Assembly: GCA_016192985.1 (NCBI GenBank)
Contig: JACPTC010000024.1
Span: 1-55,337, forward strand
DNA from: Candidatus Woesearchaeota archaeon
GTDB lineage: Archaea; Nanobdellota; Nanobdellia; Woesearchaeales; GW2011-AR4
Length of the DNA: 55,337 bases
Direction: 5' to 3'
The position numbers were made by a program, and so were the translations under genes. Below, piece by piece: positions 18,375-33,684 of the stretch; position 1 is the first letter of the stretch, and every line of letters starts with the position of its first letter. Below the pieces are notes generated by a model. That model had not been told where the DNA came from. It did no database searches and saw only the letters and a program-made list of their open reading frames with translations.

Positions 18375-18423
18375 TTTAAGCTATACAATCCAATTTTTTA
18401 CTCATTAAATGGGGCTGCCCGGA

Positions 18424-18545
18424 ATTTCATCAACCGTTTGCATTCGTCAAAAGTTTTCATTCGAGGGACTTTATGTCCCTACCAGTTTTCTTTTGGTCAA
18501 GCTTTTCTTTGCGAGGCTCTCTTGAGCGAGCAAAGAAAAGGTTGT
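18424..18545 (-). other. putative 122-nt intron in the T-loop (about position 59/60) of tRNA-Pro
   Basis: Flanks fold as T-stem CCCGG:CCGGG, 3' bulge ATT, 4-bp helix TTCA:TGAA, 5' bulge AAA, helix CAACC:GGTTG (relaxed bulge-helix-bulge). Homologous to the insert at 54788-55081. Confidence 0.65.
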
Positions 18546-18601
18546 TTTGAACCGGGGTCTTCTGGTCCCAAACCAGAAAGGATGTGTCCAAGCTACCCTA
18601 C

Positions 18602-18663
18602 AGCTTCATGCAGTGAGTTTTGTTGTGTTTTAATGTCACTAGTCCCATGCTTGGTAGCTTTCT
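18602..18663 (-). other. putative ~62-nt intron in the 5' acceptor stem of tRNA-Pro
   Basis: GGGGCT / insert / G is needed to pair with CAGCCCC. The junction is ambiguous by up to 3 nt because GCT is repeated at both ends. The intron 5' part AAGCTACC is complementary to the D-arm GGTAGCTT. Confidence 0.55.
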
Positions 18664-18861
18664 AGCCCCGCCTACGAGTATTAATACCTTGTTTTTAAAT
18701 CTATCGTTGGAAAGATAATTTTGAAGCAAATTCATAAAAATAAAACTGGCAAAGAATGTGGGCAAGAGATTAAAAAAGTTGTTTTAAAGATACCATAAAA
18801 GCCCATTTTGAGTTAACAGCTGGAAAATATCTTAATCTTTATAAATCATCATTAATTCTAC

Positions 18862-21483
18862 ATGGATATGGCACTAACAGAAGCGCAGAGGTTTCATTTA
18901 AAGAAGTTCATTAAGGAATTGGAACGGCATAGGGGCAGGCATACTGAGTTAGTCAGTGTTTACATTCCGAAGGATTATGATATGAACAAGATAATCAACC
19001 ATCTTGCTCAGGAGCAGGGTACAGCATCAAATATTAAATCATCAGCAACAAGGAATAATGTGACAGACGCCCTTGAAAGGATGATTCAGCACTTAAAGCT
19101 ATTCAAGACAACGCCAGCAAATGGGTTAGCTGTGTTTTCCGGCAATGTGGCTGAAAGAGAGGGGCAGCAAGACTTTAAGGTTTGGAGCCTAGAGCCGCCT
19201 GTGCCGTTAAAGACAAGGATTTACAGGTGTGACAAGGAATTTGTTCTTGATATACTAAGAGACATGCTTGAGGCTAAAGAGGTTTATGGATTGGTTGTCA
19301 TGGACAGGAGAGACGCCAATCTGGCTCTTCTCAAAGGAAAGACAATTATTCCAATCGTTAAAACTCATTCAGAGGTGCCTGGAAAATTTAAAGCGGGGGG
19401 ACAATGTCTTGTAAAAGGTACTTTAATTCAATCAACTGATGGCCTCGTCCTGCCAATTGAAAATTTTCATAATCCAAAAAGTGTCAAAAGTATGATTACA
19501 GAAAATTTATCAATGTCGGACTCAGCAATAGCTGATAAATGGAATGTAAATAAGGAAGAAGTTTACAAGATAATTACAAGATATCCTAGACTTGAAGTAC
19601 AATCCTCTAAAGACCACATATTTTTTGTCTCAACTCCAAATGGGCTTATTGAAAGAGCTGCTGAAGAGCTTAAAGTAGGAGATTTCTTAATTATGCCTGA
19701 AAAAATTGATATAAAGGGTGATGTACAGAGTATTAATTCTAAAAAATACTATAATTCATTTATAGTTACTAAAGAAGGTCAAGAACTTCTAAAACAAGCA
19801 CGTTTAAAAATGAAATCGCTTCAAAGAGAACTAGCTAAAAGAATTGGTGCAACACAAACAACAATCTCTTCTTATGAAATTGGCAAACTCCATGCTGAAA
19901 AAGAGCCGTTAAAGCGCTTATGCGAAGAATTAGGCATAGATTTTGAAGGATTTATACAAAAATACACTAAACAGCATCATCACCAGAATGTAAGTATAAG
20001 ATTACCTGAAACCTTAAATCCAGATTTTGCACAATTTCTCGGTTATTTTATAGGTGATGGCTGTTTAGAGACCGATAGACTTACGTTCTTCGAACAGGAT
20101 AAACAAGTTGCTTTAGCTTATAAAAAGAGGTATGAAAAATATTTTAATCTAAGAATAAGTTATCGTTTCAGAAAAAGTAAGAGTTATCATCAATTAAGAT
20201 TCACCAGTAGGCCGCTTGTTAGATTAATTATAAATGAATTTCCAGAAATTAGAAAAGCATTGGATACTGAGATTCCAGAAAAAATTCTTAAGTCAAAAGA
20301 TGAAGTAATTGCGGCTTTTCTAAGGGGGTTATTTGACGCAGAAGGGTATATCTCAGGAAAATTAGCTATTGGGATGAACAATAAAAAAATAATTCAACAA
20401 ATACAAATGGCTTTGCTTAGATTTGGAATAATATCTTCTATGCTTGAATATGACAACAAACAAAATCCTTATAGTAGAAAACATAGATTCACATTAGAAA
20501 TGTCGGAAAAAGAATCTTTAGAATTATACCAAAAGTTTATAGGTTTCTCGTCTAAAATGAAGTCAGAAAAATTAGAAACAGGCATAAAAAATAGAACACT
20601 TAGGAGCAATGTGCGACAGATTATTATTCCAGGTAAAATGATTGGTAAATTGCTAAAAGAAGCTGAGTATAGTTTAGGAAACTTCCGAGTTTCTTTGTTT
20701 TTTACAAACAAAAGAATGATGAGTAAAGCAGTTTTTTACAATAAGTTTGTACCTCAAATAAAAAATAGTAAACTTAAAAAAGAATTACTTAGAATTTATA
20801 ACATACCTATTTTGCCTGTAAAAATACATAAAATTGAATTTGTAAAAGAAAATATGGAGATGATTGACATTTCTGTAAAAGATAAGAGTTTTATAGCAAA
20901 TGGGTTAATAGTTCATAATTCAGCCCAAAGATTCCATCGCCTTATAGAAGGGGCAGCGAAAGACCATTATAAGAAAGTGGCTGAATATATGAAAGAAGCC
21001 TTTCTTAATATGGAAGGGTTGAAGGGAATAATTGTTGGCGGCCCAGGCCCCACGAAATATGATCTTGTTGAAGGTGGCTACATAACAAATGAAGTGAAGA
21101 AGAAAATAATTGCAATAAAGGATTTAAGCTATACCGGCGAATTTGGCCTTGAGGAGTTGCTTGAGAAAAGCCATGATGTTTTGGCTCAGGAAGATGTAAT
21201 TGAGGAGAAGAAAATAGTTGGCAAGTTCTTTGAGATGCTTGCAACGAAACAGAATATGGTTGCTTATGGAGAATCTGATGTAATGAAAAAGCTTAAAATG
21301 GGCGTTGTTGATATCCTGATTTTATCAGAAGACTTGCCTGATGAGAAAATTGAGGAGTTTGAGGCAACTTCAAAGCCAGTTGGAACAGAAATAAGGATTA
21401 TTTCAACGCAAACAAGGGAAGGAGTCCAGCTCCGTGATTTGGGAAAAGTAGCTGCTATTTTAAGGTATGAGGTTTACGTATAA
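18862..21483 (+). CDS. prf1: peptide chain release factor aRF1, interrupted by an intein
   Basis: Exteins: 181 aa ending ...GKFKAGGQ and 187 aa starting SAQRFHRLIEGAAK..., which rejoin as the universal GGQSAxRF motif. NIKS motif at TASNIKS. The true start may be the second ATG (18868), given the TATA at 18838-18845. Confidence 0.9.
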   Translation: MDMALTEAQRFHLKKFIKELERHRGRHTELVSVYIPKDYDMNKIINHLAQEQGTASNIKSSATRNNVTDALERMIQHLKLFKTTPANGLAVFSGNVAEREGQQDFKVWSLEPPVPLKTRIYRCDKEFVLDILRDMLEAKEVYGLVVMDRRDANLALLKGKTIIPIVKTHSEVPGKFKAGGQCLVKGTLIQSTDGLVLPIENFHNPKSVKSMITENLSMSDSAIADKWNVNKEEVYKIITRYPRLEVQSSKDHIFFVSTPNGLIERAAEELKVGDFLIMPEKIDIKGDVQSINSKKYYNSFIVTKEGQELLKQARLKMKSLQRELAKRIGATQTTISSYEIGKLHAEKEPLKRLCEELGIDFEGFIQKYTKQHHHQNVSIRLPETLNPDFAQFLGYFIGDGCLETDRLTFFEQDKQVALAYKKRYEKYFNLRISYRFRKSKSYHQLRFTSRPLVRLIINEFPEIRKALDTEIPEKILKSKDEVIAAFLRGLFDAEGYISGKLAIGMNNKKIIQQIQMALLRFGIISSMLEYDNKQNPYSRKHRFTLEMSEKESLELYQKFIGFSSKMKSEKLETGIKNRTLRSNVRQIIIPGKMIGKLLKEAEYSLGNFRVSLFFTNKRMMSKAVFYNKFVPQIKNSKLKKELLRIYNIPILPVKIHKIEFVKENMEMIDISVKDKSFIANGLIVHNSAQRFHRLIEGAAKDHYKKVAEYMKEAFLNMEGLKGIIVGGPGPTKYDLVEGGYITNEVKKKIIAIKDLSYTGEFGLEELLEKSHDVLAQEDVIEEKKIVGKFFEMLATKQNMVAYGESDVMKKLKMGVVDILILSEDLPDEKIEEFEATSKPVGTEIRIISTQTREGVQLRDLGKVAAILRYEVYV
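19405..20919 (+). mobile_element. 505-aa intein with LAGLIDADG homing-endonuclease domain and an HTH segment
   Basis: - Starts with Cys (CLVKGTLIQ) and ends with ...GLIVHN, followed by Ser+1.
- Block-B-like SSKDH.
- LAGLIDADG motifs FLGYFIGDGC and FLRGLFDAEGYI.
- Cro/C1-like HTH LQRELAKRIGATQTTISSYEIGK (about 19810-19950). Confidence 0.85.
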
Positions 21484-22508: not shown

Positions 22509-22532
22509 TATTTAATGGCAAAATTTCAGTTA

Positions 22533-24437
22533 ATGTACTGCATCTTTAAAAACAGGAGAAAGGTTACAAGGAAAAAAGAGAACAAAGCTCAGGTTACCTT
22601 TTACGCAATTCTTGGCTTATTCTTGTTTATGTTTCTAATTATAGGGGTGTTTTACTATAATAATGTTAAAGAGCAGCGGGCTAGAGAAGAAGCTGCTAAG
22701 ATACAGGAAATAAACCTTAATGCTCAGGAAATAGAGAGATTAGTAAGCGACTGCATAAGAAAGGAATCGTTTGATGGCTTAAAAATACTTGGACGGGCAG
22801 CTGGATATTTTGAGATTCCAATGCTTATAGACTATAAAGGCACTGCAATGTGGCAGTTCGATCAGGCAAACATTCAGCCATTTCTCAACCAAACTCAGGA
22901 AAGATTGATTGAGTATGTTGATAAGAATGTTCCAAAATGCTTTGAAAATGCAAATGTTACCCAGTACGGGTTTTTAATAGAGAAAAAAGAGCCAAAAACC
23001 TTTATGGAATTTGGCGCAAGCGATGTCACAATAAAAGTTATTTACCCAATAAAGGTAAGCAAAGGGCAGTTTACAAAGGAATTTTCTGAATTTTTTAACA
23101 CTTTTAACATAAGGTATCGTGCTATTTATGAGGCTGCAACTGAGGTTAATGAAAGGCTTTTTGACGCTGATTTTGACATAAAGAATCCACTGAAGAAACT
23201 TGATTACTTAAAGGGCATGGATTTTGACATTAGCTACAAGATGCTGCAAGAGGATATTATAACTTTTACAGTTACAGATAAAAGGTCAATAACTCCTGAA
23301 AACCAAAATTATATGTTCAGCTTTGCGGCAAAGCTTGGAAACTCCACATTGAAAAAGTTAACCACTTTGCAGAACAGAAGCGCAACGAATCCTGCGGTGC
23401 TGCCTTATACAATTTATTCTGTTGACAAGAAAGCGCAGCTTGATATTTTTGCAGGAACAACAGTAAATCTGGATGGCAAGGATGCAGAATATATTAGCGT
23501 GCAGCAGGCTTATCCAAATAATTTGACAACAAAGGATATCCCGCAGCATAAGAAAAACGACCAAATTGTAAGGAGAGGTGATGACAGCTATGTGATTGAC
23601 AATCCTGTTTACAACTTCGAGCCGACAGGAATAAGGTTCAACAAGCCAGAAAAATTGACTATTTATTATGAGGATGAAGCAAAGGCAGGCAAAGGCGTTG
23701 GAATTTTGATGGGCAAGAAAGACGCAAAGAAAAAAGGAAGCGGTGAAGGAAAAAAATATGGTTATGAAGATTTCTTCTGGGTTCCTATTCCCTCAAGCCA
23801 TGACATTCAGAATAAAAGAGTTATAGCAAACATACTTGGCTTTACATCCTTCACAGCAGTAAACTGCGCTTCACAGCAATTAAAGGACAAAATAGGAGAG
23901 CATTTTTTTGAGCCGGAAACTACTTGTTATGTTAGTTTGGCGATAATGATTTTGGCAATTTTGTTGGTTGTAGTTACATTTGGTGCTGGACTGGCTGTTG
24001 CCGCTCTTGGAGCTACTGCTGCACCCGGAAGTGCTTTGGCCGTGGGGGCTGGCGCTCTTAGTAGTGGATATATGGCAGCCGGTGCTTCAGCAATTGGTAC
24101 TGCTATTGGAGTAGGTGCTGGAGTAGTCACTGGTGTGGTCGCTGCTGTATCTGTTATTAGTACAGGTATGTCAGTCATCGGCTCAACCACAGACGCTTAC
24201 TGGGGAACATCAGGAGATAATTGCGTAACATTTTACCCATTGTGCGACCAGAATGTTGAAATTGTTATGGAGAAATCAACCGATGAGGCAGAAGGGCAAT
24301 GCGTTCCTGAAAAAGGGCAAAGAGTTGCTGCAGGCACTGCTTCTATGGTATGCGCACAAGTTGAGGGTTGCGGCAATTTCTTAGACAAGACTCTGTGCAA
24401 ATCTTGCAGCATCAAGTGCACTGCCAAGGTTTATTGA
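22533..24437 (+). CDS. membrane/surface protein with pilin-like class III signal peptide, Gly/Ala-zipper TM region and Cys-rich tail
   Basis: - N-terminus ...KENKAQVTFYAILGLFLFMFLIIGV fits [KR][GA][Q..][ILV..] prepilin-peptidase sites.
- The N-terminal ~100 aa are paralogous to the 27989 gene.
- C-terminus has GAGLAVAALGATAAPGSALAVGAGAL...
- Terminal CGNFLDKTLCKSCSIKC. Confidence 0.6.
   Translation: MYCIFKNRRKVTRKKENKAQVTFYAILGLFLFMFLIIGVFYYNNVKEQRAREEAAKIQEINLNAQEIERLVSDCIRKESFDGLKILGRAAGYFEIPMLIDYKGTAMWQFDQANIQPFLNQTQERLIEYVDKNVPKCFENANVTQYGFLIEKKEPKTFMEFGASDVTIKVIYPIKVSKGQFTKEFSEFFNTFNIRYRAIYEAATEVNERLFDADFDIKNPLKKLDYLKGMDFDISYKMLQEDIITFTVTDKRSITPENQNYMFSFAAKLGNSTLKKLTTLQNRSATNPAVLPYTIYSVDKKAQLDIFAGTTVNLDGKDAEYISVQQAYPNNLTTKDIPQHKKNDQIVRRGDDSYVIDNPVYNFEPTGIRFNKPEKLTIYYEDEAKAGKGVGILMGKKDAKKKGSGEGKKYGYEDFFWVPIPSSHDIQNKRVIANILGFTSFTAVNCASQQLKDKIGEHFFEPETTCYVSLAIMILAILLVVVTFGAGLAVAALGATAAPGSALAVGAGALSSGYMAAGASAIGTAIGVGAGVVTGVVAAVSVISTGMSVIGSTTDAYWGTSGDNCVTFYPLCDQNVEIVMEKSTDEAEGQCVPEKGQRVAAGTASMVCAQVEGCGNFLDKTLCKSCSIKCTAKVY
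24373..24437 (+). repeat. direct repeat copy 1 (last 65 nt of the 22533-24437 CDS)
   Basis: 60/65 identical to 25074-25138. All 5 differences are third-position or synonymous (gac/gat, gcc/gcg, aag/aaa, tat/tac, tga/taa). Confidence 0.9.
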
Positions 24438-25396: not shown

Positions 25397-25561
25397 ATGG
25401 TATTCCTCAGGGTAAAAAAAATCAACAACAATCATTATTATTATCTTGTCAAAAGCGTCAGGATTAATGGAAAAATAAGGCAGAAGGTTGTCAAGTACAT
25501 AGGCAAGTCAAAGAAACTAGCTTCTATAATCGAAAATGCTGAGCAAAAGGAAGATAGATAA
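25397..25561 (+). CDS. small basic protein (54 aa), possible DNA-binding protein
   Basis: Not in the ORF track. Hand translation: MVFLRVKKINNNHYYYLVKSVRINGKIRQKVVKYIGKSKKLASIIENAEQKEDR*. TATA box at leaderless distance. Overlaps the next gene start by 26 nt in another frame. Confidence 0.3.
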   Translation: MVFLRVKKINNNHYYYLVKSVRINGKIRQKVVKYIGKSKKLASIIENAEQKEDR

Positions 25562-27161
25562 AAAACTAAAGAAATATGTAAAGGACCATTTAAGTAAAGG
25601 CCACTCTAATAGTGCGGTAAAGAAAGTTCTAGTCGAGCATGGCTACGATGAAAATTATGTAGAAGGGCTTTTTAAAAAGCATTACGAGCTGCAATTTATC
25701 AAAAAATATGCCATTATTGTTTCAATGTTGTTCATAATTTCATTTTTTTCATTTAATTTTATTATGATGGGCAGTCAGAACCAAGAAATAACAGCTTATG
25801 CTCCTCTAAAAACAGAAAGCTTGGCAGAAGGATGCTGCTTGTCAGTATGCCAGCAGATTCCAAAGCAGGATTGCTATGGGGAATTTGTTGAAAAGAAGGA
25901 ATGCAATGAAATCGATGAATGTGTTATTGGATGCTGCATTGACAAAGAAGGATATTGCCTGACAAATTACCTGCTTGGGAATTGCATAGGGAATTATGGG
26001 AAATTCATAAAGAACGATTGCAGTAATTTATTATTTTGCAGGAACCTTACTGATAAATCATATTCAGCAAGGCTGTATAATGTCAAAAACAAAAAGGGCA
26101 GCGGTTTCTCCAGCGTGATGACCTCTACCGATTACCATAAATCCTCGTTTATAATTAACTATTTCCTTTATGACAAAACAGATGTTGTGGGGGTTATTGG
26201 TGAGATAAAAGACAATGAAAAAATCCTTGATATGATAAATCTTTACGACGATGGCTTCCACAACGATGGAGTAAGCAACGACAATCTTTACGGCAACAAT
26301 TGGCAAAGTTCAAATGTGAAAGAGTTTAATGGCATAAAAAAACTTGAAGTTTATGTAACTATAAAATATGCAGATGGAAAAGAGCAAAAAACAAACAAGA
26401 CCCAAACAATAATCCTAGTAAGAGGAAAATGCCCTCCCATCTACAGTGAATGGAGCGAAATAAAAGATAGCAACATAATATTTGCAGCTAATAATTACGA
26501 AAATATAAGCAACGGATACGATAAATTTGCAGCTGACGTTCAAAATTTCCTTAATTTGTTTTTTTCTGTAAACGACTTTTCCGACTATCTTGATGAATTC
26601 AATATTTACAGGCTGGAGCAGTCATTGTCCTATTTCAATACGCCGACCTTGCTGAGTGTTGTTGCAAATTCTTGCCAATCCTACAATAAGAAGACAGATC
26701 TGGTCGTTATTTTGGATAATGCTGAGCAATATTGCAATTATGATGGGGAAAATGTAGTCAGGGTAAGCCCGCAAGTTATGTTTTATAATAACATGACATA
26801 CGAAGAAATCAATGAAACTTTTGATAAATTCTGCGATTATGTGCTGACTCCAAGGAAGATTGCTGACCAGATATTGAGCTTCGCCACACCTCCGGAAGTT
26901 AATATAAACACAGCGCAAGATATAACTTACAATTCCAGCAGCATAATTATTTCATTTGAAGTGTCTGGGGTTAATTATCCAATTAATTACTCGGTTTTTG
27001 ATAAAGGAGGATTATTGCAGCGCAATGTTGCATTTAGTAAATTTTCAGCTGATATTAATGTGAATCTTACAAACGGCACAAACGATTTTATGATAGTTGC
27101 TCTGGACAAAAACAGAAACAGGGCTGTAACATATATTTCGCTAAATGCCACAATAGAATAA
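25536..27161 (+). CDS. type II membrane protein, Cys-rich extracellular region, unknown function
   Basis: Cytoplasmic N-terminal module KGHSNSAVKKVLVEHGYDENYVEGLF, a single TM helix (IIVSMLFIISFFSFNFIMM), then a Cys-rich segment and beta-rich domains. Confidence 0.6.
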   Translation: MLSKRKIDKKLKKYVKDHLSKGHSNSAVKKVLVEHGYDENYVEGLFKKHYELQFIKKYAIIVSMLFIISFFSFNFIMMGSQNQEITAYAPLKTESLAEGCCLSVCQQIPKQDCYGEFVEKKECNEIDECVIGCCIDKEGYCLTNYLLGNCIGNYGKFIKNDCSNLLFCRNLTDKSYSARLYNVKNKKGSGFSSVMTSTDYHKSSFIINYFLYDKTDVVGVIGEIKDNEKILDMINLYDDGFHNDGVSNDNLYGNNWQSSNVKEFNGIKKLEVYVTIKYADGKEQKTNKTQTIILVRGKCPPIYSEWSEIKDSNIIFAANNYENISNGYDKFAADVQNFLNLFFSVNDFSDYLDEFNIYRLEQSLSYFNTPTLLSVVANSCQSYNKKTDLVVILDNAEQYCNYDGENVVRVSPQVMFYNNMTYEEINETFDKFCDYVLTPRKIADQILSFATPPEVNINTAQDITYNSSSIIISFEVSGVNYPINYSVFDKGGLLQRNVAFSKFSADINVNLTNGTNDFMIVALDKNRNRAVTYISLNATIE

Positions 27162-27988: not shown

Positions 27989-29092
27989 ATGAGATTAAAC
28001 AAAGCGCAGATTTCGTATTTTCTGATATTGGGATTGATATTGGTTTTTGTGCTTGGAATAGGGGTTTATTTTGTCGGAGACTTGGAAGGGCAGAAAGCAA
28101 AAAAAACAACTGAAAAAGTTCAGCAAATTAGTTTAGAGGCGCAACCCGTAAAAACTTATATCGATGAATGCATTAAAAAGGTTGCTGTTGAGACAGCATA
28201 TGAATTTGGGCAAAGACAGGGTTATCATGATGTGCCTAAACCAAACCTTAATACTGATTATTCTAATGTCGCTTACTATTACTATAAAAGCAAAAATATA
28301 GTCCCTACTAAAAATACTCTAAAAAAAGAATTCTCAAAAATATTGGATGAAAATCTATTAATTGACTGCACTGATTTTTTGATATTTGAAAATCTTGGAT
28401 ACAGTATAGAGTTTAAAGATTTAAACTCAACAGTTCAGATATTTGAGGATAAATTAATTATTAACGTTAATTACCCGCTGCTTATTGGAAAAGGAGATTT
28501 AAAGAGTTCTATCAATACTTTTTCTTACGCACTTCCGTTCAGAATAGGGCACATAATTGATATTTCTAATGACCTAGTGAATTCAGTTGTTAGTGAGCCT
28601 TATGCTTTAGACCTTACATTATTATTAAATTTTGATGTAGGTGTTTCAGTTATACATTATGATAATTGCAATGATGTTTATATTATTGTAGACAATGAAT
28701 CAAAAGTAAAGTCTAGCGATGATGATTATGTTTTTACTTTCGCTGCTGGATTGGAAGATCAGTATTGTAGGACAAATACAAGTTATCAAGAAACCAAACT
28801 TGTTATAACCTACCCTACTGTTGAAAATCATGGCCCGATATTAGAGCCAGTATATTATCTTATTGCTCATATAAATCAAGAATTTACTTACAGGTTAAAT
28901 GCTTCTGATGAGGATAATGATACTTTATTTTATCTCACGGATGGTATTTTACAAAACTATACTAATGTTTTGTCCGGATTTATTAATTTTACTCCTAAGC
29001 GTGAGCAAATCGGCATTTACCAAGTCAATACAACAGTAGTTGACATAAACAGCGGACTGGATGTTAAGCAGTTTTATCTTGAAATAAAATGA
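27989..29092 (+). CDS. pilin-like (class III signal peptide) surface protein with C-terminal cadherin/Ig-like domain
   Basis: MRLNKAQISYFLILGLILVFVLGIGV. The N-terminal region is paralogous to the 22533 gene. The C-terminus NQEFTYRLNASDEDNDTLFY...FINFTPKREQIGIYQVNTTVVD resembles dystroglycan-type cadherin-like repeats. Confidence 0.6.
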   Translation: MRLNKAQISYFLILGLILVFVLGIGVYFVGDLEGQKAKKTTEKVQQISLEAQPVKTYIDECIKKVAVETAYEFGQRQGYHDVPKPNLNTDYSNVAYYYYKSKNIVPTKNTLKKEFSKILDENLLIDCTDFLIFENLGYSIEFKDLNSTVQIFEDKLIINVNYPLLIGKGDLKSSINTFSYALPFRIGHIIDISNDLVNSVVSEPYALDLTLLLNFDVGVSVIHYDNCNDVYIIVDNESKVKSSDDDYVFTFAAGLEDQYCRTNTSYQETKLVITYPTVENHGPILEPVYYLIAHINQEFTYRLNASDEDNDTLFYLTDGILQNYTNVLSGFINFTPKREQIGIYQVNTTVVDINSGLDVKQFYLEIK

Positions 29093-32000
29093 CCAAAAGG
29101 ACATTTTCAATATTTGTAATTTATCTTTTATTATTTTCAGCAATAAGCATTCAAATTAATGCAGACGCCCCTTCTGCTGATAATCAATACCCCTTAGATG
29201 ACAAGCCTGAAGTGCAGGAAAAATGGATTTTAGAGCATCCATCTTCATTTAATCCGGATAATCCAAATCAAAAAGACGCTTTTATCCGAGCTTATAATAA
29301 GGGTCAAATAAAATATCCAGACCACATAGAAGCAACGAGCAAATATGTTTCTACTTTAAATAATGGATTTGCAAATGACAAAGACAGGCAAATTGCCGCT
29401 AAATATGTTTCTTACTTGATGAATCAAAAGGGTGCAGATTTCAAGCAAGGCGATATAAAGATAACTGTAGAAGGAAACTACAGGTTAACTTATATTATCA
29501 CAAGCGACGGTGTAAGATGGGATTTAAATCAATTAAGCAAAGATGAAAAATTAAAGGCTATTAAGTCAAGGCAAGATGGAACTTTAGAGCTTATATACAA
29601 TGAAGGGACTGTAAATGCAAGGGGAACTTCATTGACAAAAAATCAAAATAACGAATTTGTAACAAGCAGTGGACAAACTTTTTCTGTGGAAAGTCTTAAT
29701 GGAAAAACTGCAACAGTAAGCGCAAGCGGAAGCTCTTTGAACATTAAATGTGATAATGGCTGCGTTTTGAGCAAAGGCTATATGGTCACAACTTTAAATC
29801 CAAATGGAGCATTCTGGGATTTTGGGAACAATAGATTTCAAGTTGAAGACGGCGCTACACGGCTTGGACAAAATGTCCTGGCAGGAAAATACAGTTTTAG
29901 CTTAAACATAGACAAGGATGGACACACCACTTTAGACACGTCAAAAAAAATCGAACTATTCAAATTTGGGAAAATTGACAATTTAAGGAATAGTTTTATT
30001 CATCTTGAGGATCCACAAGTTAATGATGGAAAATTGCACTTTGGCACTGTTGATGTGGCAACAAGCAGAGTTGATCCAACAACAGGACTAGGAGCAGGAA
30101 AGGTAGTGGCGTGCTTTGATTGCAAGGATTTTGATAAATCTCGCCAAGGAGGAATAAATGGTTATGTGGATTTTAAATCATATCAAAACAGCAACTGCGA
30201 TTCTGCCACTTGCGAAACAGTTTACAAGGCTGAGATGAAAGGATTGGTTGCTGCAAGATTTGAAAAAGATGCTTTCCATGAAGGATTTGACAGAAATTTA
30301 GTTGCTTCCTATTATCCAAACGGAAAAGATGCAAGTAAAACAGACATGGGTATTTTTACATTGGAAAGCTGCAAAGGCTGCAAAGTTGGTGCTGGTCAAA
30401 TTGTAGGAATACAAACCCTCAACAATAACTTTTTCCAAATACAGAACAACTATTATTCAGACGCAAAGCAAGAACCACAATTAAGATATAAACAAATAAC
30501 AACAGCACCGCAAGTAATACCTTATTTGCAGTATGCAAAGTTCAATCAAGAAGGAATAACCTTTTTCGATAAAGATATTTACAAAGAAGGAAGATTATCC
30601 GACACATTAAATACTGGCATGTATAAGTCTGACGTCTTGACCGGCAGAGATAATGCAGGCAAAAATGTCAAGAAATACATTGAGGATTTTTACACAAAAG
30701 AATACAAAGGAAATATTAGAGATGCAGTAGATAGAACAAATAGTGTATTAAGGGATAATCTAAACCCCCAATATTCGCGCAATCTGTACGTCATTGATAA
30801 TACTGCATTTAACTATGATAAAAATGGCAACAAGATTAATGTTCAGAATTTGTATGTAACCACAAAAAACAATGAAGTAATAATAGACCAATTGCGTGCG
30901 GTCGAATCAGGAATTTACTCAAATTTCTTTCAAAGGGAATCCACAAAAGAAATTCTTGATATTTTGGACAGAAAAGGAATCACTGATCCACAAAAAAGGC
31001 AAGAAGAATTTGAAAGGTTAAATGCCTTAAAATCGGATGAAATCTTTTTTAAAACAAGATTGCAATTTTTATCTGCCATTATTGATGGCGGAAGAGCGAT
31101 TCACGAAGACCATCCAGCAGTTTCAGAATTTATTAGGAAGCATATTTTAAATACCTTTCCAAGAGACGAAGCTGAATTGTTTTTAGGCAATTATAAAGTA
31201 AAGTATGCAGGTTCAAAAAAGATATTTGAGTGGCGTTCTGAGGGTAAAAGTTTAGAGGAGATATACAAGAATAGCGGCAGCTCTCCACAAATAAAAGCTG
31301 CTTTCCAGGAGCCTTATTTAGTCCATGCTTTGAATTCTGAAATGATATACAAAGCCAAACTTTACAATGAACCAACCTTATCAATTTATTATTTGGAAAA
31401 TGGAGAGATAAAAACAAAAAACATTGACGCTTCTTTAGCAAGCAGAACGTCTGCGTTGGATGCTTCAAGAGCCTATATTAAAGACAGCAATTCATATTTT
31501 TCAGATACAAGATTAGCTTTTGATATTTACACAGGCCAAATTACCAATGAACTCATTTTGGACAAAGACAAAGAAACATTCCAGAAGTATGTTAAAAATA
31601 TTCTTGGAACGGGCAAGCTGCATCCAAATTCAAGATACTATGAAGGCACGATTTACTTTTCAAACGCAGGACTGTCAGAAAAAAACTATATCCGGATTGG
31701 AGAAGGAAAATATTTTGTTGCATCAAATGAAATTATACAAATGGCAAAGAATGGAAAACTTGATGTCAATCAACTTATAGAACTATCCCAGATAAACCAA
31801 AAATACCAGCAGGATGCAAAAGCACAACAACTAAAATTATTTGCGGAAGCATTTATTCCAAAAAGCATGGCAGAATTAGCGATAAACATAGTGCCAGAGG
31901 CGGGAAGCTTGGCAAAAGGAGCGCAGGCAGTTTATAAGGCTGGAAGTGTTCTAAGGGCAACGGCTGCGTTTGGAGAGTTAAGTGGCAATATTGCATTTGC

Positions 32001-33684
32001 TGGATTGGTCGGAATATCTGTAACACCAAGAACACAACTAAAGAAAGCATTATTAGAAAGACCAGAAGTTGTGAGAGTATCCTTATTACCAGGTGCAGAA
32101 ATTAAATTAGTTCAAGATGCAAATCAAGAGCTTAAGTTGTTAAATGATGCTAAGAGACTTGCGGGAGGTTCAGAATTTCCAGCTGATGTAGTCGTTCATC
32201 AAGTTGGTATAACGACAAAGGAAGGTACTTATATCTCTCCAAAAGTCGGAGAAGATATTGTAGTCTTTGGAGATGCCCCTAAAGACATTATATACGATTT
32301 TATGGCTATAAAACAAAGCCATGGAAAAATTCGAGAAACTATTGACATAGTTGATTTACAAAAAAGCTTTCCTGAAATAAGTGAGAGATTCAAAGGTATG
32401 AGCTGGAGTTTCGCTGACTTATCAATAGAGGAACAGCAGGGAGTAATTGAAGCCATATCTAAAGCGTCCGCTTTTAAAGGAAATATTGAAAGGAGTTTGG
32501 GCGGGGATGGAAGAATAATCTGGATAGCACAACCGCAAGAGGGCGATGCAGATAGATTGGCAAATGCAGTTGGGCTAGGTAAAAAGGCTAGAGATAGTTT
32601 AATACAATCACAGAGCTTGACAAAGGTTGATTTAAGAAAAAATTTAGGTATGGAGACAAAATTTGAAGATTTAACAAGGCCTCAAATTGATGAGGTAATA
32701 GATAGAATTGCAAGATTTAATATTCATTCACAAGAAGGCACAGTGGTTTCTTATGAAGGTGCAAGAGAGTTAAGAACGGGATATGATGTGCATACTCATC
32801 CTATAAGTTTTGAACTTGGCTCACAAGCTGTTAGAGATGAATTAAAGAAACAAATTGATAAAGGATATAGGATACGATGGGATGCGGAAACATCTGCAAG
32901 AATAAAGACCAAGGTCGCTCCAGAACTGCAAAAAGACGTTAGGCAATACGAAGGATTCATTGAAAGTCACAGAGATGAGTTAAGTCAACTAAAAGAAGAT
33001 GCAGGTTTATATTATATGTCCGACGTAAAATATAGATTTTTAAATTTGCAATTCAAGAATGATGCCAAAGGAATGCAAGAACTAACTGAATCTATTAGAA
33101 ATGATGGTTTTGATTTGCCTCGATTTGATGGTCAAACAGGAAAACCATTGACTCCTGAGGTACAATTAAAATTATTTACTGAAAGACCTGTAGAGGTGAG
33201 AATATACCAAGATGCTTTTGATGCACTCGTAAAAAGGAAAGCTGGGGAAATCCAGGCAGATATTGATTTTTGGACAATAGAAAGAGATTCAAGCCAAAGG
33301 CTACTGGATTTAATAGAAGGAGGAGCGCCAGATATTAAGCTTTATTATTCTAGTTTAGATGTTGGCACCATATTACCCTCTTTTGGCCCCGTAGGTGATA
33401 TCAATACTTTGGTAAATCTTCAAAAAGAATGGTTAACACACCCAAGTGGAATAAGGTATAGGGTAGGCAGGAACGTTTATCTTTTTGGAGGAACAACTTA
33501 CATATATGTTGAAGGCTCTGATAAAGTTATAATAGTTCCGGTAATTGGAAAAAACAGTCTTCAAATTGATATACCATTATCTACTGCTACAAAAGGTCTT
33601 TTTAATGAAAATAAAGAACTAGATTTGGAACATTTGTATCCATATTGGAGTAAACTTAAGAATTGGATTGCTACTATAGAATAA
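29089..33684 (+). CDS. giant secreted protein (1531 aa), unknown function
   Basis: Sec signal peptide MTKRTFSIFVIYLLLFSAISIQINA. Uninterrupted 4.6-kb ORF. Start overlaps the upstream stop (ATGA). I recognise no confident domain. Confidence 0.7.
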   Translation: MTKRTFSIFVIYLLLFSAISIQINADAPSADNQYPLDDKPEVQEKWILEHPSSFNPDNPNQKDAFIRAYNKGQIKYPDHIEATSKYVSTLNNGFANDKDRQIAAKYVSYLMNQKGADFKQGDIKITVEGNYRLTYIITSDGVRWDLNQLSKDEKLKAIKSRQDGTLELIYNEGTVNARGTSLTKNQNNEFVTSSGQTFSVESLNGKTATVSASGSSLNIKCDNGCVLSKGYMVTTLNPNGAFWDFGNNRFQVEDGATRLGQNVLAGKYSFSLNIDKDGHTTLDTSKKIELFKFGKIDNLRNSFIHLEDPQVNDGKLHFGTVDVATSRVDPTTGLGAGKVVACFDCKDFDKSRQGGINGYVDFKSYQNSNCDSATCETVYKAEMKGLVAARFEKDAFHEGFDRNLVASYYPNGKDASKTDMGIFTLESCKGCKVGAGQIVGIQTLNNNFFQIQNNYYSDAKQEPQLRYKQITTAPQVIPYLQYAKFNQEGITFFDKDIYKEGRLSDTLNTGMYKSDVLTGRDNAGKNVKKYIEDFYTKEYKGNIRDAVDRTNSVLRDNLNPQYSRNLYVIDNTAFNYDKNGNKINVQNLYVTTKNNEVIIDQLRAVESGIYSNFFQRESTKEILDILDRKGITDPQKRQEEFERLNALKSDEIFFKTRLQFLSAIIDGGRAIHEDHPAVSEFIRKHILNTFPRDEAELFLGNYKVKYAGSKKIFEWRSEGKSLEEIYKNSGSSPQIKAAFQEPYLVHALNSEMIYKAKLYNEPTLSIYYLENGEIKTKNIDASLASRTSALDASRAYIKDSNSYFSDTRLAFDIYTGQITNELILDKDKETFQKYVKNILGTGKLHPNSRYYEGTIYFSNAGLSEKNYIRIGEGKYFVASNEIIQMAKNGKLDVNQLIELSQINQKYQQDAKAQQLKLFAEAFIPKSMAELAINIVPEAGSLAKGAQAVYKAGSVLRATAAFGELSGNIAFAGLVGISVTPRTQLKKALLERPEVVRVSLLPGAEIKLVQDANQELKLLNDAKRLAGGSEFPADVVVHQVGITTKEGTYISPKVGEDIVVFGDAPKDIIYDFMAIKQSHGKIRETIDIVDLQKSFPEISERFKGMSWSFADLSIEEQQGVIEAISKASAFKGNIERSLGGDGRIIWIAQPQEGDADRLANAVGLGKKARDSLIQSQSLTKVDLRKNLGMETKFEDLTRPQIDEVIDRIARFNIHSQEGTVVSYEGARELRTGYDVHTHPISFELGSQAVRDELKKQIDKGYRIRWDAETSARIKTKVAPELQKDVRQYEGFIESHRDELSQLKEDAGLYYMSDVKYRFLNLQFKNDAKGMQELTESIRNDGFDLPRFDGQTGKPLTPEVQLKLFTERPVEVRIYQDAFDALVKRKAGEIQADIDFWTIERDSSQRLLDLIEGGAPDIKLYYSSLDVGTILPSFGPVGDINTLVNLQKEWLTHPSGIRYRVGRNVYLFGGTTYIYVEGSDKVIIVPVIGKNSLQIDIPLSTATKGLFNENKELDLEHLYPYWSKLKNWIATIE

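Follow-up and report, generated by a model that had tools for sequence, protein, structure and literature searches.

An intein with a Cro/C1-type domain inserted at the GGQ motif of release factor aRF1 in Candidatus Woesearchaeota

Described inteins and the aRF1 element

Inteins with an endonuclease are known to carry accessory domains; some of these are helix-turn-helix (HTH)-like, and they modulate DNA recognition or cleavage (PMC8966425). The window analysed here, i.e. the whole stretch of 55,337 nucleotides from a Candidatus Woesearchaeota archaeon (assembly GCA_016192985.1, contig JACPTC010000024.1, forward strand), contains an intein inside its gene for the release factor aRF1. The intein is inserted between the GGQ motif and the following serine (GGQ/S, with the slash marking the intein boundary) and possesses a Cro/C1-type HTH domain (XRE, Pfam HTH_3) between its N-terminal splicing part and its nuclease.

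The closest described structures are those of the archaeal class-1 inteins TliVMA and PhoVMA (7QSS, 7QST; PMC8966425), which likewise combine a HINT domain, a double-motif LAGLIDADG endonuclease and an accessory domain before the C-terminal HINT part. TliVMA is the best structural match of the modelled window intein (7qss, Foldseek E = 5e-22, TMt 0.75), followed by PI-PfuI (1dq3), PI-TkoII (2cw7) and PhoVMA and, after these, by PI-SceI and I-DmoI; sequence identity to TliVMA and PhoVMA is only 12-17%. The accessory domain of TliVMA is HTH-like and alters DNA cleavage, and in both TliVMA and PhoVMA the N-terminal HINT part is connected to the nuclease by an unstructured loop of 28-32 residues (PMC8966425). 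At the place of this loop the aRF1 intein has a folded five-helix Cro/C1 domain, and its host differs from the P-loop of the V-ATPase A-subunit in which TliVMA and PhoVMA reside. PI-PfuI (1DQ3, Foldseek E = 3e-20; also the best PDB sequence match of the intein, E = 8.5e-13) and PI-TkoII (2CW7, Foldseek E = 1e-19), found in ribonucleotide reductase and DNA polymerase, respectively, are further archaeal inteins with a homing endonuclease and extra domains, namely the Stirrup in the former and, in the latter, domain IV beside an HTH-like accessory domain. Unlike the Cro/C1 domain, these extra domains follow the nuclease, and Pfam HTH_3 matches none of them.

PI-SceI (1VDE, 1LWS) resembles the aRF1 intein in having an extra domain N-terminal to the nuclease that helps to bind a long target, but its DNA-recognition region is inserted within the HINT fold and is not a Cro/C1 HTH, its host is eukaryotic and the global fit of the two structures is poor (TMq ~0.42). 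The Cro/C1 domain itself shares the five-helix fold and the signature Q-x-x-L-A-x-x-x-G-x-[ST]-Q-x-x-I-S-x-x-E-x-G-K with the 434 repressor and Cro, P22 c2 and the C-proteins (HTH_3, XRE). Those are free-standing dimers on palindromic operators, whereas a single copy is embedded here in an intein, between splicing domain and nuclease. WhiA (3HYI), a known regulator, also joins a LAGLIDADG scaffold to an HTH; it is a transcription factor of bacteria with a C-terminal HTH and without a HINT domain, and its nuclease residues are lost, whereas the aRF1 intein keeps the catalytic Asp and Glu.

The host gene is a single open reading frame (ORF) of 873 residues (18862..21483, plus strand, as are all parts of the element), which represents an aRF1 interrupted by the intein. 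The ATG at 18868 is the likely true start, because homologues begin with MALTE or MSLTE, and the gene call of the contig likewise starts two codons after the alternative upstream ATG at 18862. The N-extein (18868..19404; matches to eRF1_1 and TIGR03676) comprises domain 1 with the NIKS and YxCxxxF motifs, the latter as YRCDKEF, and the start of domain 2, and ends in KAGGQ. The C-extein (20920..21483; matches to eRF1_2 and eRF1_3) continues from SAQRF through the rest of domain 2 and domain 3 to a TAA stop. The match to the aRF1 equivalog TIGR03676 reaches E = 1.9e-119 and 399 bits against a cut-off of 234.7. The junctions read VPGKFKAGGQ/CLVKGTLIQ and FIANGLIVHN/SAQRFHRLIEG, and the reconstructed empty-site DNA is GTGCCTGGAAAATTTAAAGCGGGGGGACAA/TCAGCCCAAAGATTCCATCGCCTTATAGAA. 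Removal of the insert yields GGQSAQRF, which is contiguous at this place in the intein-free homologues (genomes L003-L007 and 116 intein-free clusters), where the alleles read GGQSANRF, GGQSAPRF and similar.

The intein (19405..20919) has 505 residues encoded by as many codons, corresponding to residues 182-686 of the ORF, and extends from Cys1 to His504-Asn505, followed by Ser+1. Its N-terminal HINT sub-domain (intein residues 1-118, 19405..19758) consists entirely of β-strands in the model, with Cys1 as block A and S68-K-D-H71 (19606-19617) as block B. Next comes the Cro/C1 domain (residues 119-196, 19759..19992; Pfam match 19789-19950), then the double-motif LAGLIDADG core (residues 197-400, 19993..20604) with a LAGLIDADG_3 match and a fold that resembles I-DmoI at TMt ~0.7; its first motif is LGYFIGDGC (D218 at 20056-20058), its second LRGLFDAEGY (D311 and E313 at 20335-20343). 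A second helical accessory domain (residues 401-470, 20605..20814; helices 410-419, 430-433, 441-451 and 455-465) separates the endonuclease from the C-terminal HINT sub-domain (residues 471-505, 20815..20919), which contains blocks F and G, matches TIGR01443 (intein_Cterm) and ends in IVHN. No other part of the intein is as divergent as this second helical domain. It lies at the position that PMC8966425 defines for accessory domains, whereas the HTH_3 domain does not. According to the model the intein thus has two accessory domains, one at the canonical site and the HTH_3 domain elsewhere.

Profile matches to Intein_splicing (PF14890, E = 6e-15) and LAGLIDADG_3 (PF14528, E = 2e-16 to 1e-15) are accompanied by strong conservation. 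In an alignment of the window's intein with 75 homologues (the wider conservation set comprises up to 120) no variation occurs at C1, S68, H71, D311, D488, F496, H504 and N505, and D218 of the first motif (GDG), E313 of the second (FDAEG) and Ser+1 are at least 90% conserved. These E-values and invariant residues place the identification as an intein far beyond chance. The AlphaFold2 model of the whole intein, built with the homologue alignment as input, has a pLDDT of 94.3 and a pTM of 0.92. It shows, in order, a β-rich N-terminal HINT part (1-118), five helices (123-187), a twofold αββαββα nuclease (~197-400), a helical domain (~405-465) and a β-rich C-terminal HINT part (469-505). The HINT fold matches five solved inteins with homing endonucleases at a Foldseek probability of 1.0, and the nuclease fold matches I-DmoI and I-Tsp061I with TMt 0.64-0.73. 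Judged by sequence and predicted fold, the element has every feature by which a class-1 intein, a double-motif LAGLIDADG endonuclease and an HTH_3 domain are recognised computationally, and it retains, in conserved form, all residues and folds on which class-1 splicing and LAGLIDADG catalysis depend.

An earlier note on this DNA, made from the letters alone, had placed an intein directly after GGQ at 19405-20919, with Cys1, a block-B SxxH, a terminal HN and Ser+1, two LAGLIDADG motifs and a Cro/C1-type HTH between N-terminal splicing region and endonuclease, and had proposed that excision recreates GGQSAxRF. The insertion is borne out to the base, and each of these features is recovered, the HTH by a Pfam score above cut-off, by its fold and by alignment with the 434 repressor; the second accessory domain was absent from that description.

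From the conserved residues and the fold, the 871-residue precursor would fold its HINT domain, Cys1 would undergo an N-S acyl shift, the N-extein would be passed to Ser+1, Asn505 would cyclise with the assistance of His504, and an O-N shift would restore the Gln-Ser bond. The products would be a normal aRF1 of 366 residues and a free intein of 505. With an insert of ~58 kDa in its GGQ loop, the precursor itself would be inactive in termination. The free intein would act as a homing endonuclease and, as distribution and DNA patterns suggest, cut intein-free aRF1 alleles at the GGQ-coding site, and repair off the intein-bearing allele would insert a copy there. For the HTH, in combination with the second accessory domain, auxiliary DNA binding that allows longer or stronger recognition of the target site is the most likely role.

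The earlier note held further that the only visible release factor gene depends on splicing. Local hidden Markov models built from homologues detect no second aRF1, Pelota or intein in the 55-kb window, and as far as this window shows, aRF1 function depends on splicing. For the lineage the intein is nevertheless dispensable, because most of the closest relatives lack it.

Occurrence and mobility

Precursors with the same architecture, 868-880 residues long and 54-77% identical to that of the window, occur in at least 120 clusters (90% identity) whose source names are Woesearchaeota or Nanoarchaeota; Aenigmatarchaeota and Micrarchaeota are also among the named carriers. At least 150 clusters in public data possess the element, which is not rare. 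A search with the intein only against 1.84 billion cluster representatives gave 3735 matches, of which 85 have E-values below 1e-30. With the same architecture present on >150 independent contigs, a mis-assembly or fused ORF was rejected. In the earlier note aRF1/GGQ was not known as a catalogued intein site. Our literature search found no paper on an aRF1/eRF1 intein or on the GGQ site, an absence from the searched literature that is no proof; the main text of a 2015 intein survey contains no release-factor entry, and a paper on Bodo saltans virus mentions eRF1 and inteins, each separately. Such sequences are nevertheless abundant in public data, where part of them bear the automatic JGI annotation 'eRF1/intein/homing endonuclease'.

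Two precursors (P0181, 1187 residues; P0192, 1452 residues) carry two inteins in aRF1, one at GGQ/C and the other directly before the Cys of YxCxxxF (YLYM/C...HN/CDDHY). Inteins thus occupy each of the two key functional motifs of aRF1.

Empty GGQ/S alleles, for which the earlier note had suggested a survey of relatives, are found in five species-representative genomes (L003-L007) with uninterrupted GGQS..RF, among them L003, whose extein is ~90% identical. A search with the spliced extein returns at least 116 intein-free clusters at 75-92% identity. Its list omits the known intein-bearing close relatives P0002-P0009, so that these counts are minima and give no exact occupancy fraction. Mini-inteins of 137 residues are present at the same site (GGQ/C...HN/S) in four clusters (P0359, P0372, P0377 and P0378; extein identity 88-91%); they lack HTH, nuclease and second accessory domain, and their C-terminal block (IDISVKNQNFIANGLIVHN) is close to that of the window.

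Intein and extein similarities to the window disagree. The Woesearchaeota locus L001 has 61% identity in the extein and 43% in the intein, the Aenigmatarchaeota locus L002 42% and 49%, respectively. Across 107 homologues extein and intein identity are weakly correlated (Spearman 0.26), with mean pairwise identities of 0.57 for the intein and 0.62 for the extein. Base composition differs as well: GC content at third codon positions (GC3) is 0.21 in the intein, 0.41 in the extein and 0.355 ± 0.06 in 36 genes of the window (minimum 0.221), and the difference between intein and extein has the same sign at 6/6 loci.

Third codon positions also record exchange at the DNA level. Compared with loci L010 and L011, third-position identity is ~0.33-0.60 in the exteins, with ~0.45 as the typical value, rises to 0.8-0.97 from the first codon of the intein and remains high up to approximately codon 270 (L010) or 480 (L011), before codons 481-645 fall to ~0.3-0.6, typically ~0.5 (codons 181-645 in the numbering of the 871-residue protein; codons 481-645 correspond to 20308-20802 of the window). 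The protein sequences confirm this pattern: over codons 181-480 P0005 shares 85% of the residues (P0002 and P0005, 78-85%), whereas over codons 481-645 none of 120 homologues exceeds 64%. The latter segment, which covers the second half of the nuclease together with the second accessory domain, has no close relative among these 120 homologues. The jump in identity over codons 181-480 and the subsequent fall indicate that the intein is a recombinant mosaic, the N-terminal 300 codons of which share with L010 and L011 an ancestor much more recent than that of the host genes. On the same comparisons, the DNA-recognition half of the window's intein is its fast-evolving part.

The ratio of nonsynonymous to synonymous divergence (dN/dS, Nei-Gojobori) is 0.10-0.22 for the intein, 0.06-0.14 for the HTH and 0.01-0.05 for the exteins, and lies well below 1 in every sub-domain. 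Because synonymous sites of the exteins are saturated, the third-position profiles are relied on instead of these ratios. The population signature of homing, i.e. sporadic presence and an intein history unlike that of the host gene, is present in these data as indirect evidence, and the intein looks still mobile. A degenerate, immobile intein was rejected on the empty sites, the mini-inteins, the incongruence, the exchange tract and the conserved nuclease residues.

The Cro/C1 domain and competing explanations

The HTH_3 match (PF01381) covers intein residues 129-182 with 33.6-34.8 bits against a cut-off of 23. Five helices (123-135, 140-147, 151-159, 166-175 and 180-187 in the AlphaFold2 model of the whole intein) are present in this model as well as in one of the domain alone, which has a pLDDT of 85.6; the second and third helices make up the HTH. 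Modelled alone, the domain finds as its best Foldseek matches the DNA-binding domain of the 434 repressor, C.BclI, P22 c2 and 434 Cro; the ribosome-bound HTH of EDF1/Mbf1 (7o81, 6zvh, 9f9s) also matches, with TMq 0.72 and a root-mean-square deviation of 1.1 Å, and the aMBF1 profile TIGR00270 matches at E = 1.7e-5. An alignment by phmmer to residues 6-59 of the 434 repressor pairs the invariant Q140 with Q17, the near-invariant Q151 with Q28, E158 with E35 and G160 with G37. Q17 and Q28 of the repressor contact operator DNA.

A precomputed HTH_3 match exists for nearly all of the 120 homologues listed; P0005 lacks it. The domain also lies between N-terminal HINT part and nuclease in related inteins of FttA/aCPSF1 (P0215), a β-CASP protein (P0179) and a DHHA1 protein (P0193), and, at the same place, in the intein of P0250, another host that is not aRF1. 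Conversely, the otherwise closely related aRF1 inteins P0132-P0135 are without it, and local domain models assign it to 32 aRF1-hosted representatives and not to 16 others. In P0005 (L011:1273-3681; extein identity 87%) the HTH alone has been lost and the other intein features are intact; the loss is an in-frame deletion of 216 bp (72 residues) between 8-bp direct repeats AAAAATAC, which corresponds to ~19744-19959 of the window. The HTH is therefore an optional module of the intein lineage and not part of aRF1 biology; a role in aRF1 function was rejected on its occurrence in inteins of unrelated hosts. The earlier note did not associate such a domain with standard intein architecture, and no paper on a Cro/C1 domain at the junction of N-terminal HINT part and nuclease was found in the literature searched. 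Position and type appear to be new, but the principle is not, because accessory DNA-binding domains, HTH-like ones included, are already known in endonuclease-bearing inteins (PMC8966425).

Since the same module sits in the inteins of FttA/aCPSF1, β-CASP and DHHA1 proteins, the HTH most likely aids the endonuclease in binding its target. The likeness to repressors, the conserved residues aligned with DNA contacts, the unrelated hosts and the described action of accessory domains (PMC8966425) all suggest a role in target recognition, which seems reasonably plausible and is the least secure step of the interpretation. That the element is a splicing-competent, mobile LAGLIDADG intein at GGQ/S is very probable from its sequence, its model and its relatives. 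The combined interpretation, a class-1 LAGLIDADG intein at this site that splices and homes and uses its HTH as an auxiliary DNA-binding module, we regard as likely.

Several points weigh against this interpretation. Splicing, DNA cleavage and DNA binding by the HTH are all read from sequence, distribution and model, and the domain order does not establish that the HTH faces the DNA-binding saddle of the LAGLIDADG core. The natural loss of the HTH implies that it is not needed for persistence of the intein, which fits an accessory role and does not prove one. Homing would presuppose a route by which DPANN cells exchange DNA. Low GC3 of the intein inflates chance identity at third positions; codons 481-645, in the C-terminal half, share the base composition of the rest of the intein and serve as an internal control. 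The dN/dS values are only rough because of the saturated synonymous divergence of the exteins (pS ~0.75). Finally, the single-copy status of aRF1 covers the 55-kb window, and the genome may contain another aRF1 outside it.

The uniform precursor lengths (868-880 residues in at least 100 clusters) and the conserved housekeeping gene context would also suit an intein that is inherited vertically and now immobile, kept since imprecise loss destroys an essential gene, with endonuclease and HTH as relics. Conserved nuclease motifs and catalytic residues, the low dN/dS throughout, a patchy presence among the nearest relatives, mini-inteins, the disagreement of intein and extein similarity and a near-identical synonymous tract confined to the intein make this very unlikely. 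No more credible is a domesticated regulator, in which the XRE-type HTH of the freed intein would act as a transcription factor in the manner of WhiA, or in which conditional splicing would adjust how much active release factor is available. HTH_3 is the fold of the classic repressors, the domain is under purifying selection (dN/dS 0.06-0.14), intein and aRF1 would be produced 1:1, and WhiA (3hyi) is among the fold matches (Foldseek rank 22). No host function can depend on the intein, though, where most of the closest relatives are free of it; the acidic nuclease residues are kept, unlike in a domestication of the WhiA type, the HTH is lost in close relatives with the rest intact, the same module resides in inteins of unrelated host genes, and no operator-like target was identified.

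A ribosome- or RNA-directed HTH, which would bind the small subunit like MBF1/EDF1, hold precursor or free intein on ribosomes and thereby connect the element with translation termination, appears extremely improbable. The host protein is a ribosome-binding factor, ribosome-bound EDF1/Mbf1 structures and the aMBF1 profile match the domain as given above, and MBF1 chains are found among weak PDB sequence matches; but EDF1/Mbf1 scores are no better than those of DNA-binding repressors, the residues aligned with the DNA-contacting Gln of the 434 repressor are conserved, none of the other hosts with this HTH (FttA, β-CASP, DHHA1 and P0250) is a release factor, and close relatives dispense with the module. 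An accessory DNA-binding role in homing thus remains the preferred interpretation. Extending it, the HTH might be a portable targeting module that defines an undescribed intein lineage of DPANN archaea, its extra DNA affinity permitting colonisation of unrelated essential genes (aRF1 GGQ, FttA/aCPSF1, β-CASP, DHHA1 and at least one other host), with specificity re-tuned by fast evolution of the second half of the nuclease and of the second accessory domain; we offer this as a speculation that is more likely wrong. If true, the module would drive ectopic transposition of inteins and provide a natural template for retargetable meganucleases.

Neighbouring genes, variant release factors and biological meaning

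The gene order around the element, ribulose-phosphate epimerase, RNA-binding protein, prefoldin, L37ae, aRF1 and SprT-like protein, is a housekeeping context and is matched on a 306-kb Woesearchaeota contig (L008). That contig has an IS110-family transposase pair between L37ae/tRNA-Pro and aRF1 (L008:4794-5819), which is not present in the window. In L010 the gene directly downstream of the intein-bearing aRF1 hosts another intein (L010:4401-6428; 675 residues, with a weak Mg_chelatase match and Intein_splicing). Downstream of aRF1 the window contains four consecutive large ORFs without a Pfam match at E <= 1e-4 (22515-24437, 25536-27161, 27989-29092 and 29089-33684, plus strand; 640, 541, 367 and 1531 residues), two of which are among the lowest-GC3 genes of the window.

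The 490-bp intergenic gap between L37ae and aRF1, upstream of aRF1, contains a tRNA-Pro(UGG) gene (18410-18607, minus strand) whose T-loop is interrupted by a non-canonical intron; this intron measures 121 nt in the window (18424-18544), against 22 nt in L003. After its removal by hand, ARAGORN identifies tRNA-Pro(tgg), but it finds no tRNA in the unedited window; Rfam yields nothing in the whole window at gathering thresholds, nor in the intergenic region at E <= 1. The acceptor stem of the window copy is left with two A·C mismatches if a second intron of ~57 nt, after position 6, is not taken out as well; a further 5' piece of the tRNA may lie at 18664-18669 (minus strand). A 59-nt block here is 100% identical to L003, despite saturated synonymous sites in the adjacent aRF1 exteins between close relatives.

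Outside the window, a large intein-free aRF1 clade (P0395-P0514 and P0147, several of them named Candidatus Aenigmatarchaeota) carries GGW where GGQ is otherwise universal. GGW is present in 118 of the 120 clusters closest to P0147, with NIKS and YxCxxxF intact and lengths of about 400-410 residues. Loci of this clade are L012:5001-6218 and L013:778-1989, and in a 1.1-Mb contig the Trp is encoded by TGG. P0491, a member that has GGQ, reaches 70% identity with a GGW member, and both have a KaiC-like ATPase as neighbour, which points to orthologues and not old paralogues. A full-text literature search found no paper on a GGW aRF1, and these release factors may be more surprising than the intein itself. 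Variants with GGF, GGM and GGS occur among the intein-bearing representatives.

Catalytic motifs of essential proteins are expected sites for inteins. Neither the insertion at such a motif nor the possession of accessory domains is new; worth recording are the site, the layout with two accessory domains and an unusually complete picture of the homing cycle. In NCBI the precursors are named 'helix-turn-helix domain-containing protein' or 'LAGLIDADG family homing endonuclease', which hides the release factor from annotation and marker-gene pipelines.

The element splits the universally conserved catalytic loop of a release factor, and the second intein of its relatives occupies the stop-codon-recognition motif YxCxxxF. 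All stages of the homing cycle are present within one narrow clade (alleles with an empty site, with the full intein, with the intein minus its HTH and with a mini-intein), along with signs of recent exchange at the DNA level, so that intein dynamics in uncultivated DPANN archaea can be studied well in this natural system. A folded HTH of the phage-repressor type where solved inteins have a mere linker constitutes a natural experiment on accessory domains and the specificity of homing endonucleases, and is of relevance to meganuclease engineering.

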